Shown: positions 2,796-56,446 of the stretch, piece by piece
Position numbering within the stretch: position 1 is the stretch's first letter
How the letters are laid out: each line of letters starts with the position of its first letter
From: Candidatus Hydrogenedentales bacterium
GTDB lineage: Bacteria > Hydrogenedentota > Hydrogenedentia > Hydrogenedentales > SLHB01
Assembly: GCA_041859045.1 (NCBI GenBank)
Contig: JBHELB010000012.1
Coordinates: 32,798 to 96,797, forward strand
DNA length: 64,000 bases
Reading direction: 5' to 3'
Program-made: the position numbers and the translations under genes
The notes under the pieces: model-generated
Database searches by the model: none
What the model was told of the DNA's origin: nothing
The model's input: only the letters and a program-made list of their open reading frames with translations

Positions 2796-3538
2796 GCGAC
2801 CGCATGCGCCGCTACTACGCCGAACATCCGCACATGGTGAGTTCGCCGTTTGGCGGCATCGAGGGTTTTCACAGTGACCTCGTTGAAAAGGTGACGCGTC
2901 GTCTTGGCATCTCCTGGATGGGCCGCCGCGTGCTGGACGTGGGGTGCGGGCGCGGATTTCTGGGCGATATCGTGCGCGCGAACGGCGGCGAGTACGTGGG
3001 CGCCGATCTCGTGGCCAGCCGTGCGGGCGTGCGCATGGCCGTGGCGGATGCGCAGCGTTTGCCGTTTGCCGACGCCTCCTTCGATCTTGTGTGCTGTATC
3101 GACGCCTTCGAACACATACCTGCGCCGCATGCCGCCGTGCAAGAGTTTCGCCGGGTGCTACGGCCCGACGGCTCGGTGTTTTTGTCGGCCCCAAACTACG
3201 GAAACGTCGCGGGGCTAGTAAAGAAGTGGTGCGAGTCACGGGGCGGTTACGCGCGCGATTCCTGGGCTCCCTTCGGGCGGTGGAGCCCGCAAGAACTCGA
3301 ACACGCGCTGACCTTGCGCGGGGTGCGTCGGCTGTTTAGCGCGGCGGGCGCGCGCCGCATGCAGTGCATCGGCTATGGTGCGGAGGTTGAGTTAGGTCTG
3401 TTCCCATGGATTGCTCACCCGCGCTTTCCCGAGGCGCTGTTGTATCGCCTGCAACGCCTGTTTCGCGCCGTCGGGCCGGGAGTGGCGCGCGTCTGGCCGG
3501 GGGCGAGTCTGCACGGCTTTTGGCGTATAGACTTCTGA
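2792..3538 (+). CDS. class I SAM-dependent methyltransferase
   Basis: VLDVGCGRGFLG glycine-rich SAM motif. ATGA overlap with the GT2 stop. Conserved acidic residues follow. Confidence 0.8.
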   Translation: MSDRMRRYYAEHPHMVSSPFGGIEGFHSDLVEKVTRRLGISWMGRRVLDVGCGRGFLGDIVRANGGEYVGADLVASRAGVRMAVADAQRLPFADASFDLVCCIDAFEHIPAPHAAVQEFRRVLRPDGSVFLSAPNYGNVAGLVKKWCESRGGYARDSWAPFGRWSPQELEHALTLRGVRRLFSAAGARRMQCIGYGAEVELGLFPWIAHPRFPEALLYRLQRLFRAVGPGVARVWPGASLHGFWRIDF

Positions 3539-3630
3539 CGGGCGGAAGGCCTTCCGCGCCAGAGATGTTTCCACTGTGCAGGGCCGAATGGTATGCTGTT
3601 GCACCGCTGAGGGGCAAGGGAGACAACACG

Positions 3631-6600
3631 ATGAGCCAGCAGACATCGCTGGAGGCGTTATGGGAGCGGAAGGCGTATCGCCGGGGATTCTGGGCACTCC
3701 TGGCGACGCAATTTCAGGGGGCATTCAACGACAACGCCTTCAAGCAGACGATCATCTTGTCGCTACCGGTGCTGTTGACGGCGCAGCATTACCCGGAATC
3801 GTGGCAGGGCTACGTAACGGGCGTGTCCACGCTGCTGTTTAACCTGCCGTTTATCCTGCTGCCGGGGATTGCGGGGGCACTGGCGGATCGCTACAGCAAG
3901 CAGAGCGTGGCGTTGGCCACCAAGTATTTCGAAGTAGCTATCATGGTCTTTGGGGCTGTTGCGTTCTATATCGGAAATCCGTACGCGATATGGGCGATGC
4001 TGTTCCTTATGGGCCTGCAGAGCACGCTCTTTAGTCCCGCGAAGTACGGCATTTTGCCGGAGACCCTCCCAGAAGGCCGTTTGTCTTGGGGCAACGGCGT
4101 CCTCGCGACGCTCACTTTCGTGGCGATCATTCTGGGTACGGGCGCGGTGGGCCCGCTGCTCGATCTGGCGGGCGGGAACGTCTATCTCATCGCGCTGCCG
4201 CTCATCGTGCTGTCGATCCTAGGCACACTCTCCGCGCGCTGGATCACACACCCGCCCGCGGCCGCGCCGGATCGTCCCTTGCCGTTGAACCCCTGGGCGG
4301 ACATGGGGCAGTACGTGCGCCTGTTCCTGGCCGATCGTTGGCTGCTGCTTACGATGCTTGGCATTACCTACTTCTGGTTCTGCGGGCAACTCATGATGAT
4401 GAACATCATCGAATTTGCCAAAGGCATCTCGTCGAACAACACCGGCATCTCGATCATGCTCGCGTCGCTCACGCTCGGCATCGGCGGCGGCAGCATGGCC
4501 GCGGGATATCTGTCGCGCGGACGGATCGAGGTGGGCCTTATCCCGCTTGGCGCGTTGGGGCTGTCGTTCTTCAGCGCGGTATTGGGCCTGAACACGGTGG
4601 GGCTGTGGGGCGGCTCCGCGCTCCTGTTTGCATTGGGATTCTTTGGCGGCATCTACGATCTGCCGATGCAGGCGACGTTGCAGCAGCGGAGCCCGGACAG
4701 CGTCAAGGGCGGCATGATCGCCGCGAACAATTTCTTCAATTTCGTCGGCATGGGCCTGGCCGCAGGGCTATTCATTCTGTTGTTTGGCGTGCTGCACGTC
4801 TCGCCGCGAGTCATTTTCCTGCTTAGCGCCGTGCTCACGCTCGCCGTGGGCATTTACATCTGCTATTTGTTGCCGATGTTCCTGCTGCGCTTCATTCTGT
4901 GGGTACTGGGGAACACGTTCTACCGCCTGACCGTCGCGGGCGCGCACCACGTACCGCAGAAAAGCGGCGCGCTCATCGTCGCCAATCACACGTCTTTCAT
5001 CGACGCGCTCGCGGTCATCGCGTCACTCGATCGCCCCATGCGGTTTCTGATGGACCATGAGATCTACGACCTGCCTTGGGTGCGCCCACTGGCGAAAGCG
5101 ATGAACGCGATCCCTATTTCGCCAAAGGACAGCCCACGCGAGTTGATCACCGCGCTCAAAACCGCCGCGAGCGCCATCGAGAATGGCGAGTTGGTTTGCA
5201 TCTTTGCCGAGGGGCAGATCTCGCGCACCGGCCAGCTGCTGCCGTTCCGAAAAGGATTTGAGCGGATCATGAAGGGCCTCGACGCGCCCATCATTCCCGT
5301 GTACCTCGATCAACTCTGGGGCAGCGTATTCAGCTATTCCGGCAACAAATTCTTCTGGAAAGTCCCGCGCAGTATTCCGTATCGCGTGACGGTCGCCTAC
5401 GGCGCGCCGATGCCGGGCGACAGCACGCCGCAGGCCGTGCGCCAGGCGATGCAGGAACTCGGCACAGAGGCGTTCCTTCTGCGCAAGCATCGTCAGCCCA
5501 TGTTGCATCGTGCGTTCGTGCGCAGCGTCCGGCGTAGGCCGTTCGCGTTGTGCATGGCCGACATGACGATTCCCAAGCTCTCGTATTTCAAAACCTACGT
5601 TGGCGCGCTCGTGTTTGCGCGCAAACTGAATGCGCTGCTCGACGATCACTCTATGGTCGGCGTCTTGTTGCCGTCCACCGTCGGCGGCGCGCTCACCAAT
5701 ATCGCGCTCCAATTTATGGGCCGGACGGCGGTCAATCTCAATTACACCGCCGCGCCGGACGCCGTCGCCTCCGCCGCGCGGCAGTGCAACATTCGTCACG
5801 TAATCACGGCGCACGCGTTCCTCGAAAAGGTGCCGATGGACGTCCCCGGCGAAGCGATCTATCTCGAAGACATCCGCAAAACCGTGACCGGACTCGACCG
5901 TATCACCGCGATGCTCATGGCGGTGTTTCTGCCGGTGCGCGTGATCGAGCGGCGTCTCGGCGGCCCGCGCAAGCGCTCGGTGGATGACCTCGCGACGATC
6001 ATCTTCTCGAGCGGCAGCGAGGGCGAGCCGAAGGGCGTGATGCTGAGTCATTTCAACATCAGTTGCAACATCGAAGCGACGCTGCAGGTCTTTCCGCATG
6101 AGGCCGGATTCGGCATGACGGGCATTCTGCCGTTCTTCCATTCCTTCGGTTACTTGGGCGGACTGTGGCTGCCGCTGTTTGGCGGGTTCTTTACGGTGTA
6201 CTACCCAAATCCGCTCGACGCGAAGACTGTGGGTTCCTTGATCGGCCAGTACCACCCGCAGTTCCTTATCGCCACGCCGACGTTTCTTCAGAACTTCATC
6301 CGCCGTTGCCTGCCTGAAGAAATGAGTTCACTCATCTACGTCGTGACGGGCGCGGAAAAACTCTCGCCGCGCATCCGCGAGGCGTTTCGGGCGAAGTTCG
6401 GCATCGAGCCACTCGAAGGCTACGGCACAACGGAATGCGCCCCGGTGGTGTCGGTGAACGTGCCCGATTTCCGCGCACCGGGCTTCTACCAAGTCGGCAC
6501 GAAGCACGGCACCATTGGCCATCCGGTTCCGGGCGTGAGTGTGCGCGTGATCGACCCCGACACCGAGGAACCACTGCAGGACGGCACTCCGGGACTTTTG

Positions 6601-13411: not shown

Positions 13412-16246
13412 ATGAGCACATCCCCAGTGAAGGCCCGTCTCGAGGCGACGGGCTGTGAAGTCTGTTTCGACGATCTCACCCGGCAACTCTATGCCACGGA
13501 CGCCTCGCTGTATCAGATTCCGCCGATGGCGGTGGCTTTTCCGCGCACAGCGGAGGAGGCCGCGCGTGTCATTGGCGCGGCGGCCGAGTCGGGCGTCGCG
13601 GTGACGCCGCGCGGCGCAGGCACTGGGCTGGTCGGCGGGGCAATCGGCTCGGGGATCGTCGTGGATCTCGCGCGGCACCTGCGCGGCATTGGCCCGCTTG
13701 ATCGCGAGCGCATGACGGTGCGCGCAGGCGCGGGGGTTGTGCTCGATGCGCTTAACGCTTGGCTCAAACCCCACGGTCTCTGCTTTGGCCCGGATGTCGC
13801 CACGAGCTCGCGCGCGACAATCGGCGGCATGATCGCCAATAACTCTTCCGGCGCGCGCGCGCCGATCTACGGTCTCACTGCGGACCATGTGGTTGCGCTC
13901 GACGCCGTGCTGGCGGATGGGCGCACGGTGACCATCGACCGCGAGAGCGCAGCGCTCGGCGCGGTGCGAGATGCCGTGGGCAAGATAGTAGCGCGCTGCG
14001 AGGGGGAAATCCGCGCGCGTATGCCCGAAGGCCTCGTGAAACGCTGGCCTGGTTATGCGTTCGATCGCTGGTTGAAGGACCCGGGAAATCTGCTGACGAT
14101 GCTTGTCGGCAGCGAAGGTACGCTCGCGGGGATCACTGGGGCCGAACTCAAGGTAGTGCCGATTCCTAGAAAAAAAGTCCTCGTGTTGCTGTATTTCCCC
14201 ACCGTACTCGAGGCCATGAGCGCAACGGTTGATTTGCTCGACCTGAAGCCGGCCGCGATAGAGCACATCGACCGTATCCTTTTCGATCAAACGCGCGGAC
14301 AACTCGCGTTCGAACCCACGCGCGCGTTGATGGGCCTCGACGATGAAGCAACGAACGCGATTCTGATGGTCGAGTTCTACGACAATATCGACGACCGCGT
14401 GGATGCGCTGCTCCATCGCAATCTCGGCACGCGCCACCAAGTGCTTACGGACGCGAAAGAGATGGAGCGCGTCTGGGCGTTGCGCAAAGCAGGCGTCGCT
14501 TTGCTCATGGGCCGCAAGGGGGCGGCCAAACCCATCGTGGGCATCGAGGATACCGCCGTGCGGCCCACGCAGTTGCCGGAGTACGTGCGCGCGTTTCAAG
14601 AACTACTCAAACGTTTCGACCTCGACGGTTCGTTCTACGGGCATGCGGCCTCGGGATTACTCCATATACGCCCCGTGCTCGATCTGCATACGGGCGACGG
14701 CGTGCGGCGCTTCCGAGAACTTACCACCGAAGTCTCCGCGTTGGTCAAGGAATTCAACGGCTCGATCTCGGCGGAGCACGGCGTGGGTATTGCCCAGACG
14801 CCGTACCTGCGCGAGCATCTCGGCGGTACGCTCGTCGAGGCCACGCGTGAAGTCAAGGCGTTGTTTGACCCGAAGGGCCGAATGAACCCTGGCAAACTGT
14901 TGGCGGAACCGGGATTCGAATCCACCGAGCATCTGCGCTGGGGCGCGGGCTATGCCATTCCGACACCGTTTGAACCCGTGCTGCGGTTCGCGGCGAAAGA
15001 CGGCTCGTTTGTCGGCAATCTCGAGCAGTGCAACGGCTGCGGCGGCTGCCGGAAGGAAACGCCGACGATGTGCCCGACGTTCATTGCCACTGGCGATGAG
15101 ATTATGTCCACACGCGGGCGCGCCAACGTCATTCGCGCCGTGCTCGACGGCCGCCTCGACAGCGGCAAGGACCCGCTGCTGAGTCCTTCGCTCGACAAGG
15201 CCCTGGGCTACTGTCTCGCGTGTAAGGCATGCACCGCCGAATGCCCCTCGAACGTAAATATGGCCCTGATGAAGGCCGAGTTGTTGCATGCAAAGCAACG
15301 CAAGTTCGGCGTTCCCCTGCGCGAGCGCGTGTTCAGCCTCGTGGACGTCCTCGGCGCGCTGGGTACGTTGACGCCCGGGCTCGCCAACGCCGCGCTGAAA
15401 TGGCGCTGGCTGCGTCAACTGCTGCGGGCCACGTTGGGCATCGCGCTGCAGCGTCCGTTGCCGCCGTATGCGCGGCAACGGTTTGACCGCTGGTTCCACG
15501 GCCGCGCGCGCGTGGATAAGGCAGGGCGTGGGAAAGTCTACCTCTGGGACGACACCTTCGTGCGCTTTCACGAGCCGAACGTGGGGCAAGCCGCAGTGAC
15601 GGTGCTCGAAGCGGCGGGCTTCGAGGTGGCGTTGGTGGAGGGGCGCAAGTGCTGCGGGCGCCCGGCGTTCAGCGTGGGACGTCTCGATCGCGCCCGCGCA
15701 CTCGGGGAACACAATGTTCGGCTGATTCGTGCGCGCGGCGGCGATGAGCCGATCCTGTTCCTTGAACCGTCATGCTATGCGATGTTCGCGGAAGACTACC
15801 GTGAACTCGGCATCGATGGCGCGGAGGAAGTGGCGAAGCGCTGTCTTCTGTTCGAACAATTCGTGTGGGATCTCGTGGAGCGCGAGCCCGATGCGTTGCA
15901 CTTTGACTGCGCGTGCACACGTGTCGCGGTGCATGCGCATTGCCACGCCAAGGCGCTCTCGGACACCAGCGTACAGACGAAGTTACTGTCGCGCATTCCC
16001 GATGCGGTCGTGACCATGCTCAACACGGGGTGCTGCGGCATGGCGGGGGCCTTTGGCGCGTGTGAAGAGAAATACGACGTATCGGTGAAAGTCGCGGAGC
16101 CGCTGGTGCAACAACTGAATGCCTTGGAGCCCGGCGCGGCGGTCGTGGCGAGCGGCACGAGCTGCCGCCATCAGATCACGCACCTGACCGAGTCCGAGCC
16201 GTTGCACATTGCGGAACTGCTGGCACGGGCACTTGCCCGGCGCTAA
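13412..16246 (+). CDS. FAD-linked oxidase fused to a 4Fe-4S/CCG-domain module (GlcD-GlcF-like; YdiJ / D-2-hydroxyacid dehydrogenase family)
   Basis: 944 aa. N-terminal FAD-binding PCMH-type domain (VTPRGAGTGLVGGA). Middle CxxCxxCxxxC ferredoxin motifs (CNGCGGCRKE, CLACKACTAECP). Two C-terminal CCG motifs (KCCGRP, GCCGMAGAFG). Confidence 0.8.
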   Translation: MSTSPVKARLEATGCEVCFDDLTRQLYATDASLYQIPPMAVAFPRTAEEAARVIGAAAESGVAVTPRGAGTGLVGGAIGSGIVVDLARHLRGIGPLDRERMTVRAGAGVVLDALNAWLKPHGLCFGPDVATSSRATIGGMIANNSSGARAPIYGLTADHVVALDAVLADGRTVTIDRESAALGAVRDAVGKIVARCEGEIRARMPEGLVKRWPGYAFDRWLKDPGNLLTMLVGSEGTLAGITGAELKVVPIPRKKVLVLLYFPTVLEAMSATVDLLDLKPAAIEHIDRILFDQTRGQLAFEPTRALMGLDDEATNAILMVEFYDNIDDRVDALLHRNLGTRHQVLTDAKEMERVWALRKAGVALLMGRKGAAKPIVGIEDTAVRPTQLPEYVRAFQELLKRFDLDGSFYGHAASGLLHIRPVLDLHTGDGVRRFRELTTEVSALVKEFNGSISAEHGVGIAQTPYLREHLGGTLVEATREVKALFDPKGRMNPGKLLAEPGFESTEHLRWGAGYAIPTPFEPVLRFAAKDGSFVGNLEQCNGCGGCRKETPTMCPTFIATGDEIMSTRGRANVIRAVLDGRLDSGKDPLLSPSLDKALGYCLACKACTAECPSNVNMALMKAELLHAKQRKFGVPLRERVFSLVDVLGALGTLTPGLANAALKWRWLRQLLRATLGIALQRPLPPYARQRFDRWFHGRARVDKAGRGKVYLWDDTFVRFHEPNVGQAAVTVLEAAGFEVALVEGRKCCGRPAFSVGRLDRARALGEHNVRLIRARGGDEPILFLEPSCYAMFAEDYRELGIDGAEEVAKRCLLFEQFVWDLVEREPDALHFDCACTRVAVHAHCHAKALSDTSVQTKLLSRIPDAVVTMLNTGCCGMAGAFGACEEKYDVSVKVAEPLVQQLNALEPGAAVVASGTSCRHQITHLTESEPLHIAELLARALARR

Positions 16247-16256
16247 GGAGACGGCC

Positions 16257-17255
16257 ATGAAATCCACGCCGCGAAAGCCTGTACCGCGCAATGGTTGCGC
16301 ACGCAGCATTGCCTCTTCGCTGGTCGTCCTCCTGCTGATCGCGGCACTTCTGCTATTGCTCAACGCGCGCACGCCGTCCGCCGCCAACTCCGCGCGAACC
16401 CTCGAGCGTCTCGCCCAGACTCCTTCTCCCGCGCAACCCTTTGCCGTCTCGGTGGCGCTGCTTTCCCTTGATGAGCGCGCGAACCGTCATACTCCCCCGC
16501 TCGACGCATGCACTGATGCCGCGAAGCAAGCGGTCCAGCTTGGTGCGGAAATCGTGGTTGTGCATGGCGCGCACTTCCCCGCCACCCGCGCCGCGCTGAA
16601 GAAGACATTGGCGCAGGAGGGCTTTGGCGAAACCACCTATTTTTCGAGCGGACTTGTCGGCAGCGGTCTATTCATCGCCAGCCGCTACGCCATCGAGGGC
16701 ATCGCATACCACCGCTTCCGTCACGCCGGTGACTGGTATCGCCCCTGGGAGGGCGACTGGTATGCCGGACGCGGCGTGGGGATCGCCTGCCTCCGGCTCT
16801 CGCCCGCGGGGCCTCTCCTCTACATCGCCGCGCTCGAGCTGCAACAGCGGTATGAGGGCAGCGAACATGAGCATATCCGCGCCGATCAACTCCGCGAAGT
16901 CGAAACCCTGGCCGAAACGCTTGCCGCGCAAGGCCCACTTCTGATCGCCGGCGGCTTCGGATTTCCCTCGGGTGACGCCGAGCCCCAGGCCTTTGCCGAT
17001 CGCGTGAGGGCCGTCCGGCTGACACCGTCCGAAGACCGCGATAACGCGATCCTCGCCGTGTTGCCGCACGAGTACCGCGCTCAGGCTGACTCCCCCGCAT
17101 CCTTGAAGCTGGTTCGAGGCACTCTGGAGCGCCACGCCGGATATGTCGTCCGTTGTCGCGCCGAACTGACCCCGCCCGAGACGCCGCCTGCTCCGGAAGC
17201 CTCCAGCGCCCCCGCCCCGCCTCCTGCCGACACGGCTACGCCCGGTTCCTCCTGA
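16257..17255 (+). CDS. membrane-anchored hypothetical protein with a Pro/Ala-rich C-terminal tail
   Basis: RBS AAGGAG before ATG 16257. One N-terminal TM helix (LVVLLLIAALLLLLNA). No family recognised. Confidence 0.5.
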   Translation: MKSTPRKPVPRNGCARSIASSLVVLLLIAALLLLLNARTPSAANSARTLERLAQTPSPAQPFAVSVALLSLDERANRHTPPLDACTDAAKQAVQLGAEIVVVHGAHFPATRAALKKTLAQEGFGETTYFSSGLVGSGLFIASRYAIEGIAYHRFRHAGDWYRPWEGDWYAGRGVGIACLRLSPAGPLLYIAALELQQRYEGSEHEHIRADQLREVETLAETLAAQGPLLIAGGFGFPSGDAEPQAFADRVRAVRLTPSEDRDNAILAVLPHEYRAQADSPASLKLVRGTLERHAGYVVRCRAELTPPETPPAPEASSAPAPPPADTATPGSS

Positions 17256-31347: not shown

Positions 31348-33021
31348 ATGAATGGCATGATGTTCAGACGCGCGATAGCGGTTTTGGTGTTGCTGGCAGG
31401 TTTGAGCACCGAGGCGTTGGCCCTGGGCCCGGAAGCCCAGCGTCGGGTCACCATTACCGCGTTGCAATTGGCGCGCCGCAGTTTCCCGGAAGCGTTCCGG
31501 GCGGGCACGGTCGATTACGAGAAGGACCTGGTGCAGGGCGCGCTCTCGGGCCCGGCCCAGATCATGAAAGTCGAGGACATCGCCGGCTACCAGGGCGCGG
31601 CGAGCATCATCGCCAACGAGATCCAGTTGCTGCGCAAGGCGCGCACGTTCGGCACGGGCAGTTACTTCGCATACCGCATGGGTATACTCGCCGCGCTGAG
31701 TTCGGATAGTGTGTTTCCGTTCACCTTCGACTATTCGGAACAAACGGTGGCGCTGCGCAAGAAGCTCGAGGTCGACCTCGATGCTCACCTCCCCAAATTC
31801 GCCTTCTCGCCGGGAAATGAAGCGCCGCAGTTCGTGCGCGATCCCATCGATTACATCACGCATCAGCGGAAGCTATTCGCCGACGCACCTCGAATTCTGG
31901 AAGTTGACTACGCCGGAGGAAGCAACACCAGCACCTATGTCATCAACGCCGGCGACGACATGATCTCGCATGCCATCCTGACGGTCGCCAGCTTCTGGTA
32001 CACCGTCCTGCGCCCCGAAAAGGATTCGTCGGATACGCCGCCGTCACAGGAAGCGCTGACGTGGTACTTCGTGTCGGAAATCGACTACCTGTTGCAGGTC
32101 AAGCGGAATCCGTCGGAGGCGAACCGCGCCTACGCCAATTTCGCGAGCACGAACCCCGGCATTATGGCCGCGTACGAGAAGGTCGGCGATGCCTACTACG
32201 CATCGGGCGACGTGCCGCGCGGGGTGAAGGAATGGCAGCAAGCGCTGAATTTCCAGGGGGCCGCGCGCGCGCGGTTGGCAAAAAAACTGGCCGACCACTT
32301 CCTCGAGGAAGGCGACCGCTACCTTCGCCGCGCCGATCCGGTGACGCCGGAAACCAAGGAGCGTGATCTGGAAGACGCGCTCGACAATTTCCAGAACGCG
32401 CTCAGCTACGACCGCGCCAGTGAGGAAGCGGCCGGAATGATCAGCAAGACGCGCTCCGCCATCAAGGCGCGCGACGAGCGCCGCGAACTGGCCATCCGCA
32501 TGGTCGCTTCGGCGGAAAAAGTGCTGCGTGAGGCCGAGACCAGCGAGGTGTCCAAGGCCTACGCCGACGCGATTCAGAAGTACAACAACGCGACGATGCT
32601 GTATGGCAAGGTGAGCACGGAGTTCAAGGCCCAAGCGGAGGCCGCCAAGCAAGGCGCGCAGAGCTCGAAGAAGCGCGTGGCCAAGATCATCAATGACCTT
32701 ATCGATCAGGCCCAGGCCACGGTCGAGGAAGGCGATCGCATGGTCGAGCAGAATCAGTACGATCAGGCGATGGAAAAGTACAAGACTGTGCCGAGCATCT
32801 TGGGGCCGATTCCGGACGATCCGAGCACGACGTGGGGCAAGGATAAGAAGGAATGGGAGCAGAAGGCCCAGACGCAGCTCGACCAGGCACAGATCGAAAA
32901 AACGCGTTGGGAAGAAGAGCAGAAACGCCGTGCGGCGGCTCAGGCCAAGGCGGCTGCGGAAAAAGGCGGCGCTGCGCCCGCTCCAGCTCCGGCACCGGCG
33001 CCCGCGCCGGCTCCCCAATGA
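31348..33021 (+). CDS. secreted coiled-coil/TPR-like protein with a C-terminal (PA)n tail
   Basis: Signal peptide MNGMMFRRAIAVLVLLAGLSTEALA. The C-terminal half is Lys/Glu/Ala/Gln-rich and helical. It ends APAPAPAPAPAPAPQ. RBS AAGGG. Confidence 0.55.
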   Translation: MNGMMFRRAIAVLVLLAGLSTEALALGPEAQRRVTITALQLARRSFPEAFRAGTVDYEKDLVQGALSGPAQIMKVEDIAGYQGAASIIANEIQLLRKARTFGTGSYFAYRMGILAALSSDSVFPFTFDYSEQTVALRKKLEVDLDAHLPKFAFSPGNEAPQFVRDPIDYITHQRKLFADAPRILEVDYAGGSNTSTYVINAGDDMISHAILTVASFWYTVLRPEKDSSDTPPSQEALTWYFVSEIDYLLQVKRNPSEANRAYANFASTNPGIMAAYEKVGDAYYASGDVPRGVKEWQQALNFQGAARARLAKKLADHFLEEGDRYLRRADPVTPETKERDLEDALDNFQNALSYDRASEEAAGMISKTRSAIKARDERRELAIRMVASAEKVLREAETSEVSKAYADAIQKYNNATMLYGKVSTEFKAQAEAAKQGAQSSKKRVAKIINDLIDQAQATVEEGDRMVEQNQYDQAMEKYKTVPSILGPIPDDPSTTWGKDKKEWEQKAQTQLDQAQIEKTRWEEEQKRRAAAQAKAAAEKGGAAPAPAPAPAPAPAPQ

Positions 33022-49033: not shown

Positions 49034-49765
49034 TCACGAAATTCGAGGATTTCGGAGAATCGATCGCTTCAGTTCCTCGACGAAAAGGACCGGCGAAGTT
49101 CGATGCAGCATCGCGTGGCAGTTGGGGCACACCGGTCTCAAGTCGCGGACGGGATCGACGACATACTCCGCATTTATCTCCGCGAGAGGAATGACATGAT
49201 GCACATGAATATAATCCCGTCCAAGCTCGCCGTAGACGAACTCAAAAGAAAAACCGCATATCCAGCACGAGCAGCCGTAATGCTCTATGCATTTTCGCCG
49301 CGCAAGTGCACTGCGCTCATACAGATTGACCATAACGGAAAACATCATCCCTTCGCGCAAAGGCTCGTCTTCCGCAACATCTTCCGCAATATCGTCCGCG
49401 TGAAAATCAAGCAGCGCATCTTGATCAAGTTGCGTCTTCTGAATAGCAGCGACTAGTTCCGGCAAGAGACGCCACGTGCATGCTACGCCATCCCAGACGG
49501 ATATAACCGAAAACCAACTAGGCGCTTTCGGGAATGCATAGTGCGGCGGCAAAATGCCTGTATATTGCGAAATCACTCTTGCGGCATTGCCGATAATATT
49601 ATTTGCGGGAGAATGGCTGGAGTACCCGAGCAAGGCCGCCACTTGTCCCGCCGTCGCTTCATGTCCTGGAAACGAATACAACGCCCAAATAGCGTTTCGT
49701 TGAAGTTCACTCAAAGGCGCGTGCTGCAGCGCGTCAATGAACTGCTCGGTCGAAGGCGTCGCCAT
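49034..49765 (-). CDS. HNH endonuclease-domain protein (McrA-like; candidate type IV modification-dependent nuclease)
   Basis: C-terminal CIEHYGCSCWICGF...YIHVHHVIPLAEINAEY...LRPVCPNCHAMLH gives a CxxC...HH...N...CxxC HNH zinc-finger nuclease motif. The N-terminal ~150 aa are unrecognised. The region is low-GC. Start trimmed to MATPSTEQF. Confidence 0.65.
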   Translation of the reverse strand: MATPSTEQFIDALQHAPLSELQRNAIWALYSFPGHEATAGQVAALLGYSSHSPANNIIGNAARVISQYTGILPPHYAFPKAPSWFSVISVWDGVACTWRLLPELVAAIQKTQLDQDALLDFHADDIAEDVAEDEPLREGMMFSVMVNLYERSALARRKCIEHYGCSCWICGFSFEFVYGELGRDYIHVHHVIPLAEINAEYVVDPVRDLRPVCPNCHAMLHRTSPVLFVEELKRSILRNPRIS

Positions 49766-49980
49766 TGTCTTTTTCGCTCCTAGTGCGTTCCACCAAAAAT
49801 GACCGCCGCAAAACGCCTCCGAATCAAGCGAATGCGGCCAACAATTAACTCCGGTAAGCATAGCAGATTAGGCAAATAGGCGACTGAGAAAGAGGATGCC
49901 TCCGCACAGGGACGTAGGAGACCGCCAGCCCTTCGCGGATGCGATGGCCTCCTCTGGAGGTTTGGCCCCCCCTTCCGAGG

Positions 49981-50122: not shown

Positions 50123-51700
50123 ATGCCCAAGATTCTCGTGCTCGATAATCTCAGCGAAGAAGGCGTTGCCGTATTCCGCCAAGCGGGTTTCGAGGTAGAT
50201 GTTAAGCCTCCGCAGAAACCGGACGAGTTGGCGGCAATCATCGGGGACTACGACGGCCTTGTCGTGCGCAGCGCCACCAAGGTAACCCCTGAGGCCCTCG
50301 TTTCGCCGGGCAAGCTGAAGGTCATCGGGCGCGCGGGCGCGGGCACGGACAATATCGACAAGGACGCCGCCACGAAACAGGGCATCGTCGTGATGAACAC
50401 GCCGGGCGGCAACACGATCTCGACATGCGAACACACCTTTGCGCTGCTGTTCGCGCTGTGCCGCAATGTGCCCAAGGCCCACGTCTCGATGATGGAAGGC
50501 CGTTGGGACCGCAAGAAATTCATGGGCGCCGAACTCTACGGCAAGACGCTGGGCATTATCGGCGTGGGCCGGATCGGCGGCGAAGTGGCCAAGCGCGCGC
50601 AGGCGTTTGAAATGAAGGTGCTCGCGTATGACCCGCTGCTGACGCAGCTCAAGGCCGAGGCGCTCGGCGTCGAACTGGTGAGCGTCGAGGAACTCGTCGA
50701 ACGCGCGGATTTCATCAGCATCCACGCGCCGAAGACGGAAAAGACAAATAATCTCGTCACGCTCGATGTGCTCAAGAAGATGAAGCCGACCTGCCGTATC
50801 GTCAATTGCGCCCGCGGCGGCATCGTTAACGAGGCCGACCTCGCCACGGCGCTGAAAGAGAAGATCATCGCCGGGGCCGCGCTCGACGTGTACACGTCTG
50901 AACCGTTTGAGAATAATCCGTTCCTCGGACTCGACAATATCATTATGACTCCGCACCTGGCGGCCTCGACCGATGAGGCGCAGTTGACGGTGGCCGTGGA
51001 TGTTGCGCGTCAGATGGTCGAGTACTTGACCACCGGCGCGATCGTAAATGCGGTGAACGTGCCCAGCCTCGACAGCGAGCAGCGCAAGGCGCTCCAGCCG
51101 TTGATTTTCCTTGCCGAACGCGTTGGCAAGTTTCAGTCGCTCTACACCCAGGGCAAGCCGCAGTCCATCGAGGTCGAATACCTCGGCGACCTCGGCGTCA
51201 CCGACACGTACCCGATCACCGCGTCCGTGCTTGTCGGATTCCTGTCACCCACCGTCGAGACCGTCAACATGGTCAGCGCCCCGGCCCTGCTCCAGCGCCA
51301 CGGCATCGAGTTTAAGGAGACGCGCAGCCCGCGCATCACCAACTACGCTTTCGAAATCTGCGTCAAGGTGGTGACCGATACGGAGGCCCACAGCGTTTCC
51401 GGCACCTTGTTCAACAACAACGACCCGCGCATCTGCGTCATCGACGGCACCCGCGTCGACGCCGTGCCGGAAGGGTGGATGTTGGTGTGCATCAACGACG
51501 ACAAGCCGCTCATCATCGGCCGCGTCGCGACGCTTATCGGCGAGGCAGGCGTCAACATCGCCAACCTTGTCCTTGGCCGTGACGAACGCGGTGGGCGCGC
51601 CGCCACCATCCTGAATCTCGACGATTGCCTCTCCGACGATCTCATGGAGAAGATTCGTAAAGTTCCCCACGTCAACCAGGCCCGCCTCTTGCAGTTGTGA
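50123..51700 (+). CDS. serA: D-3-phosphoglycerate dehydrogenase
   Basis: 525 aa. MPKILVLDNLSEEG start. NAD-binding GIIGVGRIGGEVA. C-terminal ACT domain. RBS GGGAGG. Confidence 0.9.
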   Translation: MPKILVLDNLSEEGVAVFRQAGFEVDVKPPQKPDELAAIIGDYDGLVVRSATKVTPEALVSPGKLKVIGRAGAGTDNIDKDAATKQGIVVMNTPGGNTISTCEHTFALLFALCRNVPKAHVSMMEGRWDRKKFMGAELYGKTLGIIGVGRIGGEVAKRAQAFEMKVLAYDPLLTQLKAEALGVELVSVEELVERADFISIHAPKTEKTNNLVTLDVLKKMKPTCRIVNCARGGIVNEADLATALKEKIIAGAALDVYTSEPFENNPFLGLDNIIMTPHLAASTDEAQLTVAVDVARQMVEYLTTGAIVNAVNVPSLDSEQRKALQPLIFLAERVGKFQSLYTQGKPQSIEVEYLGDLGVTDTYPITASVLVGFLSPTVETVNMVSAPALLQRHGIEFKETRSPRITNYAFEICVKVVTDTEAHSVSGTLFNNNDPRICVIDGTRVDAVPEGWMLVCINDDKPLIIGRVATLIGEAGVNIANLVLGRDERGGRAATILNLDDCLSDDLMEKIRKVPHVNQARLLQL

Positions 51701-51739
51701 GGCAGGCGACGGGATATGGACATATCCTTGGAGTGAGGG

Positions 51740-52150
51740 GTGGTGGACACGCTGAGCGTCGAAGACCGCAGCCGCACAATGGCGAGCATCCGGGGAAAGG
51801 ACACGATCCCGGAAAGGAAAGTGCGCAGCGCTCTTCACGGCTTGGGATATCGGTACAGGCTACATGTGGCTGATCTGCCTGGAAAGCCCGATATCGTTTT
51901 TCCAAACCGCATGAAGCTGGTCTTTGTTCATGGATGTTTCTGGCATAGCCACCAATGCAGGGGCGGGCGCAATCGCCCTGTAACGAATGTTGACTATTGG
52001 AGTGAAAAGCTGCATAAGAATGTAGAGCGAGATAGGCGTAATATCCGGCGCCTTCGCCGCCTTGGGTGGGGTGTTTTGGTGGTTTGGGAATGCCAGACGA
52101 GGGATATGAGCAAAGTCGTGAGTAGGCTTCTCCGTTTTTTGGAAGGTTGA
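51740..52150 (+). CDS. vsr: very-short-patch repair endonuclease
   Basis: 136 aa. RGKDTIPERKVRSALHGLGYRYRLHVADLPGKPDIVFPNRMKLVFVHGCFWHSH is the canonical Vsr block. Confidence 0.85.
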   Translation: MVDTLSVEDRSRTMASIRGKDTIPERKVRSALHGLGYRYRLHVADLPGKPDIVFPNRMKLVFVHGCFWHSHQCRGGRNRPVTNVDYWSEKLHKNVERDRRNIRRLRRLGWGVLVVWECQTRDMSKVVSRLLRFLEG

Positions 52151-52156
52151 CCTAAG

Positions 52157-53314
52157 ATGTCGAGCCGACGTCTCAGCTACTATGAGTTCTTCGCCGGAGC
52201 GGGCATGGCCCGGCTGGGACTCGGCACGCGTTGGGAATGCACTTTTTCTAACGATTTTTCTGAGAAGAAAGCGACTTCCTACCGCCTTAACTTTGCTCCA
52301 GCAAACGAATTCCGTTGCCAAGACGTGGCAACGTTGCGTTCCGCCGATCTTCCTGGGCACCCCCATATGGCGTGGGCGTCTTTTCCATGCCAAGACTTGT
52401 CTCTAGCAGGAACTCGCAGGGGGCTTGACGGTGAACGAAGCGGAACATTTCGGTCTTTTTGGCATTTGATGAAGAATATGACCGACGAAGGTCGCGGCGT
52501 ACCACTCATCGTACTGGAAAACGTTCCTGGTGCCATAACCTCAAACAATGGCGCCGATTTTCGCGAGCTTGTGAGCACGCTTGTTGAGGCGCAATACCGT
52601 GTTGGCGCAATGGTAATGGATGCAGCGTTGTTTCTTCCTCAGTCCCGAGCGCGCCTTTTCGTTGTGGCCATTCAAAAGAACGTGGCGTTTTCCAAACGTG
52701 TATGCGATGTTCAGCCCGTGCCGTGGTGGCATCCCAAGACGCTTGTGGACGCTTACCAAACGCTTTCGAGGCAGGCGCAGAGAGAGTGGGCATGGTGGTC
52801 TCTGCCGTTACCTTCGAAAAGGCCGATCGAGCTGGCTTCGCTAATCGAGGAAAATCCTTCCGGAGTCGAATGGGACTCTCCTGAGCAGACGCAGCATTTG
52901 CTCGCGTTGATGTCCGAGCGAAATCTCGAAAAAGTCCGCCAGGCGCAAGAACTGGGCAGGCGGATCATAGGAACTCTCTATCGGAGAACCAGATTAACGC
53001 CAAGCGGTGATCGTGTTCAGCGCGCGGAAGTGCGATTTGACCAGATCGCCGGCTGTCTTCGGACGCCGGCTGGCGGCTCAAGCCGTCAACGGCTGCTGAT
53101 CGTCGAGGGAAACTCGATTCGTTCACGCCTGATCTCCGCAAGAGAAGTTGCTCGATTGATGGGCGTTCCTGATACATACACGCTTCCAAGGGACTACAAC
53201 GAAGCCTACCATCTCATGGGCGACGGTTTGGCCGTTCCAGTAGTCGCGTGGCTTGAGTCCCACTTGCTGCGTTCTTTGGCGCAATCCGCAAAACGTTTGC
53301 TGGAGGCCGCTTAG
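52157..53314 (+). CDS. dcm: DNA (cytosine-5)-methyltransferase
   Basis: Motif I FFAGAGMARLG, motif IV FPCQDLSLAG (PC) and motif VI ENVPG. 385 aa. Confidence 0.9.
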   Translation: MSSRRLSYYEFFAGAGMARLGLGTRWECTFSNDFSEKKATSYRLNFAPANEFRCQDVATLRSADLPGHPHMAWASFPCQDLSLAGTRRGLDGERSGTFRSFWHLMKNMTDEGRGVPLIVLENVPGAITSNNGADFRELVSTLVEAQYRVGAMVMDAALFLPQSRARLFVVAIQKNVAFSKRVCDVQPVPWWHPKTLVDAYQTLSRQAQREWAWWSLPLPSKRPIELASLIEENPSGVEWDSPEQTQHLLALMSERNLEKVRQAQELGRRIIGTLYRRTRLTPSGDRVQRAEVRFDQIAGCLRTPAGGSSRQRLLIVEGNSIRSRLISAREVARLMGVPDTYTLPRDYNEAYHLMGDGLAVPVVAWLESHLLRSLAQSAKRLLEAA

Positions 53315-54198
53315 TGAGTAAGCCCAAGGAACCAGCAATAATCCCATGTGTTTCCTCTCCAGAAACTCAAAAGCGCATAAAGGATTACATTCAAGCCCTC
53401 AAAGAGCATGCTCACGAAATTGGAGATCATGGCCTTAGCAAGACTGAATTTCATGATTCCGGTCTCTTTCGAAGCGCCATAGAGAGCATTCGCGGAACGC
53501 TTGCTGCGACCACGAGAGAAAAACGCTCGTTTACGGAAGCGATCCTCGAAGAATTACGCCAACGCGGCGAAATTGCCGAATGGGAATTTACTGGCGCAGG
53601 AGAGCGACATGACTACAGTGTTCGCACGAAGAACGGGCGGATCGTAATCATCGAGACAAAAGGGTGTTTGGACGGAAACAACACCAATATCTTTGAGCGT
53701 CCACCGCAGGCAGACGAATTCATAATCTGGTCTTTGTGTCAAAACCCCGGCGCCGATCCACGTAAGAATGCATGGTCGGGGATACATACTCGGTTGAGCG
53801 CGGAGATTATTCACCGTCAGCAACGAGTTGACGGATTGGTTATTTGGGACATGCTTTGCGGCACGGTAGGACGCCCTTGCCCGAAGACAGACAAAGAGAC
53901 GAAACGACTGACGAGGAACTCAAACGAGAAACGGCTGCCGCCGCCCTGTCTGTATCTTTTCCCGCGAAGTCTCCCGGATGCGAGAAACAATCCCGCTCCG
54001 GAAGTGCATAAGCTTCGAGACGTCGCTTTTCTAAATGCGCTATCCCGCGTTTTTGGCGCGGATTCCTCAAGCGTTGTCGAGGTGCACATTGAAGCGCGCA
54101 TGGAGGGCGCGGACGTGCAGCGAAGAACGCGATTTGTCCGAGGAAAGGCCGAGATCGCTGTTTCCGAGTGGACGAAGGTAAACCGGGCAAGAAGATAG
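53314..54198 (+). CDS. hypothetical protein, candidate PD-(D/E)xK type II restriction endonuclease partner of the dcm-type methyltransferase
   Basis: GTG start overlaps the MTase stop (TAGTG). HDYSVRTKNGRIVIIETKGC contains a D...E-x-K-like arrangement. Lowest GC in the window (about 45-50%). No other family recognised. Confidence 0.45.
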   Translation: MSKPKEPAIIPCVSSPETQKRIKDYIQALKEHAHEIGDHGLSKTEFHDSGLFRSAIESIRGTLAATTREKRSFTEAILEELRQRGEIAEWEFTGAGERHDYSVRTKNGRIVIIETKGCLDGNNTNIFERPPQADEFIIWSLCQNPGADPRKNAWSGIHTRLSAEIIHRQQRVDGLVIWDMLCGTVGRPCPKTDKETKRLTRNSNEKRLPPPCLYLFPRSLPDARNNPAPEVHKLRDVAFLNALSRVFGADSSSVVEVHIEARMEGADVQRRTRFVRGKAEIAVSEWTKVNRARR

Positions 54199-54334
54199 CA
54201 CTGTACAAGGCCTTGGCTGAACAGGTAAACTTCACCCGCTGCGCCGATCCGGCGTTCGCTAAATTAATATCGTTACTTCGGCAATGGTTTCCTGAAGCCA
54301 ATCGCATGTAGTACAACGCCAAGAGGGAGACTGC

Positions 54335-55573
54335 ATGATGTCTAGCTACCAGTTCGCGAAGGTTCCGGCAGGCGAGAAGATCACGGCGCGGAAGGACGGC
54401 ACGCTTGATACGCCGGACCGGCCGATTGTGCCGTTCATCGAGGGCGATGGCACGGGGCCGGATATCTGGCGCGCGTCGCAGCTCGTGTTCGATGCGGCGG
54501 TGAAGCATTGCTACGGCGGCAAGCGTGAAATCGCGTGGATGGAAGTGTACGCGGGCGAGAAGGCGAATCAGGTCTGCGGCACGTATCTGCCCGATGAGAC
54601 GCTTCAGGCCATCCAGGAGTTCCTGGTCGGCATCAAGGGGCCGCTGACGACGCCGGTCGGCGGCGGGTTCCGCAGTCTGAACGTCACGCTGCGGCAGAAA
54701 CTCGATCTGTTTGCGTGCGTACGGCCCGTGCGCTGGTTCGAGGGCGTGCCGAGCCCGGTCAAGGAACCGGAAAAGGTGGACATGGTCATCTTCCGCGAAA
54801 ACACGGAAGACGTCTATGCCGGGCTCGAGGTCGAGGAAGGCTCCGAGAGCGCGAAAAAGCTGCTCGGCTTTCTCAAGCAGGAATATGGATGGGACATTCG
54901 CCCCGATTCGGGCATCGGCATCAAGCCGATCAGCCGCACCGGCACGCAGCGCATCGTTCGCGCCGCGCTGAACTACGCGGTCAAGCACGGGCGTAAGTCG
55001 GTCACCATCGTCCACAAGGGCAACATCCAGAAGTTCACCGAGGGCGCGTTCCGCAAGTGGGGCTACGAGTTGGTCAAGGCGGAGTTCGCGGACAAGGCGG
55101 TGGGCTGGGACGACTGCGGCGGCAATCCCGGGGATAAAATCCTGGTGAAGGACGCGATCGCGGACATTTTCTTGCAGCAAATTCTCACGCGTCCGAGCGA
55201 GTTCGACGTGGTGGTGACGATGAATCTGAACGGCGACTACATGAGCGACGCCCTGGCGGCTCAGGTCGGCGGTATCGGAATCGCCCCGGGGGCGAACATC
55301 AACTACGAAACAGGGGCATCTATCTTCGAGGCCACCCACGGCACGGCGCCAAAATACGCGAATCTGGACAAAGTAAACCCGTGCAGCGTAATCCTGTCGG
55401 GCCTGATGATGTTCGAGCATATGGGCTGGCCCGAGGTCACGGAAGTGGTCACGGCGGCCTTGGTAAAGACGTTCCGGTCCAAAGTGGTAACCTACGATTT
55501 TGCTCGTTTAATGACGGGCGCGCAAGAGGTTAAGTGTAGTGAGTTTGGGCGGGAGATTGTGAGAAATCTATAA
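54335..55573 (+). CDS. icd: NADP-dependent isocitrate dehydrogenase
   Basis: 412 aa. [34 protein letters not shown] and [26 protein letters not shown] blocks. Confidence 0.9.
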
Positions 55574-55678: not shown

Positions 55679-56446
55679 ATGGGACCGGTCTTGTCGGACG
55701 TACAACGCATGCAAAGCGACCTTGATCTGACGACGCCGGAGGCGCACGCGCGGCTCGCGCGACTGTACCGTTACGCCCAGGTAGGACGCTGCGTAAGCAG
55801 CGTGACGCACGATGTGAACAACTTTCTTGGCGCCATCCTGGCATACGTGGAACTGATTGAGTTGGACAGCACTTTGACGCCGGAATCGACCCGCATGGTG
55901 CAGGAGATCGTGAACGCCGTGCGGAAATCGAGCGCGTTGGTGAACAATTTGACGGATGTCTCGCGGCGCGAGCGCATGGATCTGCGGATGACGGATTCGG
56001 CGCAGTTGATGGAACGCGTGCTTGACCTTCGCCGTTACGATATGAAGGTTGCTCAGGTTGGGCTGAAGACAGACTATGCAACCAGCTTGCCCACGCTGTT
56101 GATCGATCTGCCGAAAGTGGAGCAATCGCTTATCTACCTTGTCAGCAACGCCATCGAAAACGTCGCGGGAATGGAACGTCGTCAAGTGCATGTGACGGTG
56201 ACGCCGAGTGGAGACGGGGTGGAGTTTGTGGTGTTCGATTCGGGCGAACCGGTTCCCGGGGAAAACCGCGAGCACATATTCGAACCGTTTTTCACGACCA
56301 AAGAGGCCGAACACGTTGGCCTAGGGCTGACCATCGCGCGGGAAACCGCGCGGTTGCACGACGGCGATCTGGTCTATGAGCCCGATCGCGGATTCGTGAT
56401 GCGGCTGCCCAAACAGAATTCTCTCGCCTCAAAAGCCGTAGGGTAA
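55679..56446 (+). CDS. soluble histidine kinase core (HisKA + HATPase_c) without a sensor domain
   Basis: H-box SVTHDVNNFLGAILAYVELIEL. N/G boxes VSNAIENV and EPFFTTKEAEHVGLGLTIARE. 255 aa, no TM helix. Confidence 0.75.
   Translation: MGPVLSDVQRMQSDLDLTTPEAHARLARLYRYAQVGRCVSSVTHDVNNFLGAILAYVELIELDSTLTPESTRMVQEIVNAVRKSSALVNNLTDVSRRERMDLRMTDSAQLMERVLDLRRYDMKVAQVGLKTDYATSLPTLLIDLPKVEQSLIYLVSNAIENVAGMERRQVHVTVTPSGDGVEFVVFDSGEPVPGENREHIFEPFFTTKEAEHVGLGLTIARETARLHDGDLVYEPDRGFVMRLPKQNSLASKAVG

Follow-up and report, generated by a model that had tools for sequence, protein, structure and literature searches.

What restriction–modification (R-M) capacity, if any, is encoded by a compact gene cluster lodged between serA and icd in a member of an uncultured phylum, and which DNA site would it address? 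The locus lies in a 64,000-nucleotide stretch from a Candidatus Hydrogenedentales bacterium (GenBank assembly GCA_041859045.1, contig JBHELB010000012.1, forward-strand positions 32,798–96,797), hereafter the window, and comprises a very-short-patch-repair gene (vsr), a C5-cytosine DNA methyltransferase gene (dcm) and an open reading frame for a 294-residue protein, ORF3. An earlier interpretation made from the letters alone, the sequence-only reading, had taken the trio for a complete type II R-M–Vsr module, and all three components, methyltransferase (M), endonuclease (R) and Vsr, are identified here by homology and are intact. In our assessment the trio is very probably a horizontally acquired, self-contained KasI-family type IIP R-M cassette with an added Vsr, set into the serA–icd spacer of Candidatus Hydrogenedentota.

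The genes are co-directional on the plus strand and tightly packed, as first described: 6 bp separate vsr from dcm, and the dcm stop TAG and ORF3 start GTG have one base in common ('...GCT TAG TG AGT...'), a TAGTG overlap whose coordinates were verified on the sequence. Methyltransferase and endonuclease genes are adjacent but separate, each encodes a single polypeptide, neither an ATPase nor a specificity subunit accompanies them, and their outer neighbours are serA and icd, the layout of a type IIP system.

The first product is a Vsr endonuclease by profile (TIGR00632, 1.8e-45, 154 bits against a curated cutoff of 97.85; PF03852, 6e-28; PADLOC Vsr, 4.5e-35), and its translation holds the catalytic PD and HGCFWH elements of that family (GKPDIVF and HGCFWH). 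The second matches PF00145 (4e-38) and TIGR00675 (9e-39), both above the curated cutoff, and the PADLOC MTase_II model PDLC03243 (6e-95). Its motifs follow in the standard order (I, FAGAGM; IV, FPCQDLS; VI, ENV; VIII, QSRARLF; IX/X, GDGLAVPVV), which agrees with the initial recognition of Vsr and of a C5-cytosine methyltransferase from motifs I, IV and VI. The best PADLOC match of the methyltransferase is DruM2 (PDLC00028, the Druantia type II methylase; 2e-144), stronger than MTase_II; M.KasI-like R-M methylases evidently come under this model too. Membership in a Druantia type II system was rejected, as DruE, DruF and DruG are not nearby and dcm is surrounded solely by vsr, the endonuclease gene, serA and icd.

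ORF3 had been described as having no recognizable family. This is true of Pfam and NCBIfam, neither of which returned a match, but not of the REBASE-derived REase_II models in PADLOC, where PDLC03501 aligns with residues 9–291 (model positions 3–284 of 285) at 5.4e-100. The same model matches gp34 of Burkholderia phage AH2 over its full length (2.7e-134), and ORF3 and gp34 are 52% identical over 91% of length (tblastn, 1e-92). With gp34, ORF3 is part of a family exceeding 3,000 proteins: we found 3,066 homologues, the best 120 of which are 54–66% identical, come from many phyla and are nearly all labelled 'hypothetical protein', and a search of representatives at 50% identity yielded 228 clusters. 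A survey of 80 metagenome loci reveals an obligatory M–R linkage, with a co-directional dcm homologue immediately upstream in 66 of the 66 loci having at least 400 bp of upstream DNA. Sufficient flanking sequence to either side was available for 48 loci: 16 are ordered vsr–M–R and 20 M–R–vsr, and the flanks of the other 12 hold no vsr; ORF3-type proteins thus recur at other vsr–dcm loci (36 of 48 with vsr), as the module proposal would have it. The M–R(–Vsr) module is likewise present on plasmids from Ralstonia, Xanthomonas, Methylomonas, Sphingomonas, Kozakia and members of the Roseobacter group, and occurs in Burkholderia phages AH2 and Menos. Some modules hold an extra GIY-YIG nuclease gene: gp33 of AH2 (4862–5437 of locus L164), labelled an 'excinuclease', lies between R and vsr, a Kozakia plasmid has one just upstream of M (96–671 of locus L003), and the features listed under the match on a Methylocystis plasmid (H14) include one. 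No such gene is present in the window island.

We then considered whether ORF3 has the attributes of a nuclease. The string HDY...IVIIETKGC, singled out beforehand as a D...ExK arrangement, spans residues 99–118, and the residues chosen from it (D100, E114 and K116) show no variation across 26 close homologues; of the 63 columns invariant in close homologues ORF3 keeps every one. The same three residues are kept in 25, 25 and 28, respectively, of 29 representatives whose identity goes as low as 26%. In an AlphaFold2 model (mean pLDDT 85.3, pTM 0.84) the protein has a helical domain at the N terminus, a core in the middle and a β domain at the C terminus, with D100 placed directly before strand 101–105 and both E114 and K116 within strand 110–116, as expected for a PD-(D/E)xK core. 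The modelled core may share with the solved PD-(D/E)xK enzymes AvaII, EcoO109I and NgoMIV an α-β-β-β-α-β order carrying D...ExK. Foldseek places EcoO109I, SfsA and AvaII as the best matches, all at an E value of 0.025 or weaker, and a sequence and profile search of the PDB returned only chance matches (a MAP kinase at 0.1 and a MarR-type regulator at 0.17), with no solved family member. The superfamily assignment comes mainly from motif and topology, because Foldseek E values are at least 0.025 and there is no close solved relative; on these grounds the sequence and model support ORF3 as a PD-(D/E)xK-type restriction endonuclease. It is hardly credible that ORF3 is instead a non-nuclease accessory of a Dcm/Vsr module, or that the methyltransferase derives from Druantia type II. 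The missing Pfam and NCBIfam assignment and the DruM2 match could be cited for such a view, and they are met by the full-length REase_II match, a literature tie between the family and the commercial enzyme KasI (below), the conserved triad on a PD-(D/E)xK-like core and, for Druantia, a neighbourhood of serA and icd with no Druantia genes.

The tie to KasI runs through phage AH2. Its gp34 is reported to be 64% identical to KasI of Kluyvera ascorbata and its gp35 63–66% identical to M.KasI (PMC3483164); KasI, whose sequence is publicly available, cuts G^GCGCC (PMC2875022). In the window, ORF3 likewise adjoins an M.KasI-like C5-methyltransferase, with the 1-nt overlap described, 47–56% identity to gp35 and the 66-of-66 linkage seen among metagenome loci. 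The identity to gp35 is 47% in the target-recognition region and 53–56% in the N- and C-terminal parts of the catalytic core. Long blocks within the recognition region are conserved with the AH2, Menos and Kozakia enzymes, which argues for a target in common with gp35. Judged by its sequence, then, ORF3 is very probably a new member of the known KasI family and not a new type of enzyme, and the target of the island system is probably GGCGCC. The proposal of a probably new restriction specificity is not supported; homology points instead to a KasI isoschizomer.

Searches for further documentation of KasI added little. Cluster look-ups of eight ORF3-family representatives contained no KasI-named entry; a homology search seeded with gp34 returned only 'hypothetical protein' labels, with KasI not among the top 120; a literature search for R.KasI and M.KasI gave only PMC2875022 and PMC3483164; and the PD-(D/E)xK surveys of 2008 and 2012 do not mention KasI in their main text. 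The family may represent a distinct, structurally unsolved PD-(D/E)xK lineage of more than 3,000 members. Because KasI endonucleases have neither a Pfam or NCBIfam model nor a solved structure, annotation pipelines label members 'hypothetical protein', and the same database gap explains why no family was seen for ORF3 at first. The locus thereby exposes an annotation gap around a large and highly conserved endonuclease family.

Comparison with characterized systems places the cassette more closely. Like the KasI system, it has an endonuclease of about 285–294 residues directly downstream of a C5-methyltransferase of about 380 residues; it differs in its host (Hydrogenedentota against Enterobacteriaceae), in roughly 50% sequence divergence and in carrying vsr upstream of M. 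The 'DNA protection and repair module' of AH2 (gp35-gp34-gp33-gp32) and its Menos counterpart (gp049–051) also group homologous M, R and Vsr in a co-directional block. AH2, however, is a temperate phage with the order M-R-(GIY-YIG)-Vsr beside an integrase, whereas in the window vsr comes first and there is no GIY-YIG or mobility gene. The EcoRII/SsoII-style comparison drawn in the sequence-only reading holds for logic and fails for ancestry. As in EcoRII/Dcm-Vsr systems, a 5-methylcytosine (m5C) methylase would protect, a PD-(D/E)xK nuclease restrict and Vsr repair deamination. The nucleases EcoRII, PspGI and Ecl18kI, all of which have PDB entries, have no sequence relationship to ORF3, for which the PDB gave no match by sequence or profile, and the target is CCWGG for the EcoRII/Dcm type against a probable GGCGCC here.

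We next turn to how the island came to its present site. Synteny in relatives bears out the original proposal of an insertion between serA and icd. The serA product is 67–78% identical to its best homologues, which assign the window to Candidatus Hydrogenedentota, and icd follows serA by 28–421 bp (tblastn coordinates) in 31 of 34 loci from related Hydrogenedentota; of the remaining three, one stops inside serA and two have no icd match. None of the 34 has vsr, dcm or ORF3 between serA and icd. The insertion is real, because the two genes are 2.63 kb apart in the window against 28–421 bp in relatives, and the trio is a horizontally acquired foreign insert in an otherwise short spacer. Base composition agrees, although the contrast is smaller than the 45–55% against about 65% GC given before: the island is indeed lower than its flanks, but measures 54.0% GC (its genes range from 52.3 to 55.4%), with serA at 61.3% and icd at 60.6%. 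Foreign composition is clearer at third codon positions, where the contrast is much sharper (GC3 of 0.53–0.59 in the three island genes, 0.81–0.83 in serA and icd). Around the island, target-site duplications and terminal repeats were found at chance level only (best flanking inverted pair 25 nt at 72%) and none is convincing; exact breakpoints cannot be placed because the serA–icd intergenic DNA of relatives is too diverged. Coordinates of the island and its flanks are collected in the table.

Table. The vsr–dcm–ORF3 island and its flanks (window coordinates)
Feature	Position	Strand	Details
serA, D-3-phosphoglycerate dehydrogenase, native left flank	50123–51700	+	2-Hacid_dh, PGDH_inter and ACT domains; GC3 0.825
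Left junction, serA stop to vsr start	51701–51739		39 bp
vsr, T:G mismatch very-short-patch-repair endonuclease	51740–52150	+	136 aa; GTG start
dcm, C5-cytosine DNA methyltransferase, M.KasI-like clade	52157–53314	+	385 aa
TAGTG stop/start overlap of methyltransferase and endonuclease genes	53312–53316	+	read from sequence
ORF3, predicted KasI-family type IIP restriction endonuclease, PD-(D/E)xK core D100/E114/K116	53314–54198	+	294 aa; GTG start
Right junction, endonuclease stop to icd start	54199–54334		136 bp
icd, isocitrate dehydrogenase, native right flank	54335–55573	+	Iso_dh PF00180, 9e-91; GC3 0.811

Several observations weigh against a KasI-family cassette directed at GGCGCC. The link to KasI is an indirect, if consistent, two-step homology (about 52%, then about 64%) joined to the BLAST statement of one paper (PMC3483164). 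Palindrome avoidance, scored against a maximal-order Markov expectation in the window, in 55 carrier loci, in 34 relatives without the island and in 46 unrelated loci, shows GGCGCC depleted in the window (32 observed, 62 expected; observed/expected ratio (O/E) 0.52) relative to relatives without the island (0.86), but GCCGGC (0.43) and CCGCGG (0.61) are similarly low in the window and the pooled metagenome carrier loci reach only 0.76 for GGCGCC. Three GGCGCC sites lie inside the island itself. No promoter-like site or terminator was found in or before the island or at its junctions by a sigma-70 scan that is uncalibrated for this phylum, and neither a controller protein nor a mobility gene (integrase or transposase) was found with the island. 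Because other GC-rich palindromes are equally depleted and carriers stand at 0.76, the GGCGCC deficit is non-specific evidence, and we rejected palindrome avoidance as a means of assigning the target. Other palindromes are also under-represented in the window (observed against expected: GGATCC, 2 and 12.3; CAGCTG, 1 and 8.8; GTGCAC, 7 and 19.2; GCCGGC, 21 and 49), deficits that may reflect further restriction systems in the genome.

These points bear on a variant in which the system is of the KasI family but the roughly 50%-divergent clade has shifted to another recognition sequence or cleavage position, and so to a new specificity. We consider this unlikely. It would fit the limited identity to the AH2/KasI-like clade (only about 52% for the endonuclease and 47–56% for the methyltransferase), the non-specific depletion of a site assigned by homology, and the behaviour of the methyltransferase clade, which also pairs with an unrelated DUF4928 nuclease. 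Restriction enzymes at about 50% identity are as a rule isoschizomers, however, and the endonuclease family is unusually uniform, with 54–66% identity across phyla and 63 invariant columns, while the methyltransferase recognition region keeps its long blocks with AH2, Menos and Kozakia. The DUF4928 pairing concerns members of the same methyltransferase clade (52–54% identity overall, 49% in the recognition region) that sit with a nuclease outside the KasI family on about 20 plasmids of Pseudomonas, Achromobacter, Serratia, Aeromonas and Burkholderia. On pAX22 (3495–5572 of locus L165), the one such locus inspected, the partner is a DUF4928 protein matching PADLOC REase_II PDLC03543 (5e-43), a candidate alternative endonuclease, perhaps a neoschizomer, for that site or one like it. 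Such pairing shows that partners in this methyltransferase lineage are swappable.

A second variant, in which the island is a relic, decaying or silent, whose methyltransferase and Vsr may be active and whose endonuclease is inactive or unexpressed, strikes us as quite improbable. The lack of a detected promoter-like site would suit it, as would decay elsewhere in the family, where one member has lost the triad (P0130, with G/R/T) and another gene is split. The latter, on Kozakia baliensis plasmid pKB14400_4 (2093–2951 of locus L003), is divided into reading frames 2093–2491 and 2556–2951 and, from its sequence, looks like an inactivated R gene beside an intact methyltransferase and vsr. In the window, by contrast, all three reading frames are intact and full length and ORF3 keeps every column invariant in its close homologues, D100, E114 and K116 included, which makes decay or silence unlikely; the promoter scan is uncalibrated for the phylum.

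The preferred reading, a KasI-family cassette with Vsr, suggests how the three products would work together. The methyltransferase would use S-adenosylmethionine to methylate a cytosine of a palindromic target, most probably GGCGCC, on both strands of the host DNA, and the 294-residue endonuclease, Mg2+-dependent and presumably a homodimer, would cut unmethylated sites in DNA brought in by phages or plasmids, at G^GCGCC if it behaves like KasI. Vsr would nick 5' of the T in T:G mismatches arising from deamination of 5-methylcytosine, and short-patch repair would restore the C, offsetting the mutagenic cost of methylation. The vsr–M–R order and the one-base M/R overlap suggest co-transcription and translational coupling, and if the two genes are so expressed the nuclease would never be made without its methylase. 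The broader significance is modest: this is a clean, minimal R-M–Vsr cassette, free of mobility genes, in a conserved housekeeping spacer of an uncultured phylum. A probable GGCGCC restriction barrier would nonetheless be a practical point for transforming or culturing Hydrogenedentota.

The surroundings of the island provide some further observations. Downstream of icd, a 255-residue histidine-kinase-like reading frame (55679–56446, plus strand) is syntenic in 16 related loci, and the native order serA-icd-kinase is therefore conserved around the insert. In one Hydrogenedentota relative (14209–16686 of locus L027, minus strand), a different vsr and dcm pair is found downstream of icd, at a distance of about 3.3 kb and in opposite orientation, with 43% and 36% identity to the respective window genes, from which it follows that the neighbourhood has acquired m5C systems more than once. 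Long antisense frames over icd (53840–55420, minus strand, 526 aa) and serA (51245–51838, minus strand, 197 aa) are apparently a by-product of the high GC3 of the coding strand, and their tblastn 'conservation' mirrors the sense genes. Just upstream of serA, a 275-residue HNH protein is encoded at 49034–49861 on the minus strand by a foreign-looking gene (52% GC, GC3 0.587). Relatives do not share the gene order upstream of serA, so this gene cannot be called an insertion by comparison. No family was assigned to its N-terminal 140 or so residues; its C-terminal half matches both the 5-methylcytosine-specific E. coli restriction enzyme McrA (PDB 6ghc, 1.3e-6) and a PADLOC model for type IV methyl-directed REases (4e-7). 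The question arises of how a putative nuclease dependent on m5C and an m5C methyltransferase encoded 1.9 kb away would be compatible in one cell.

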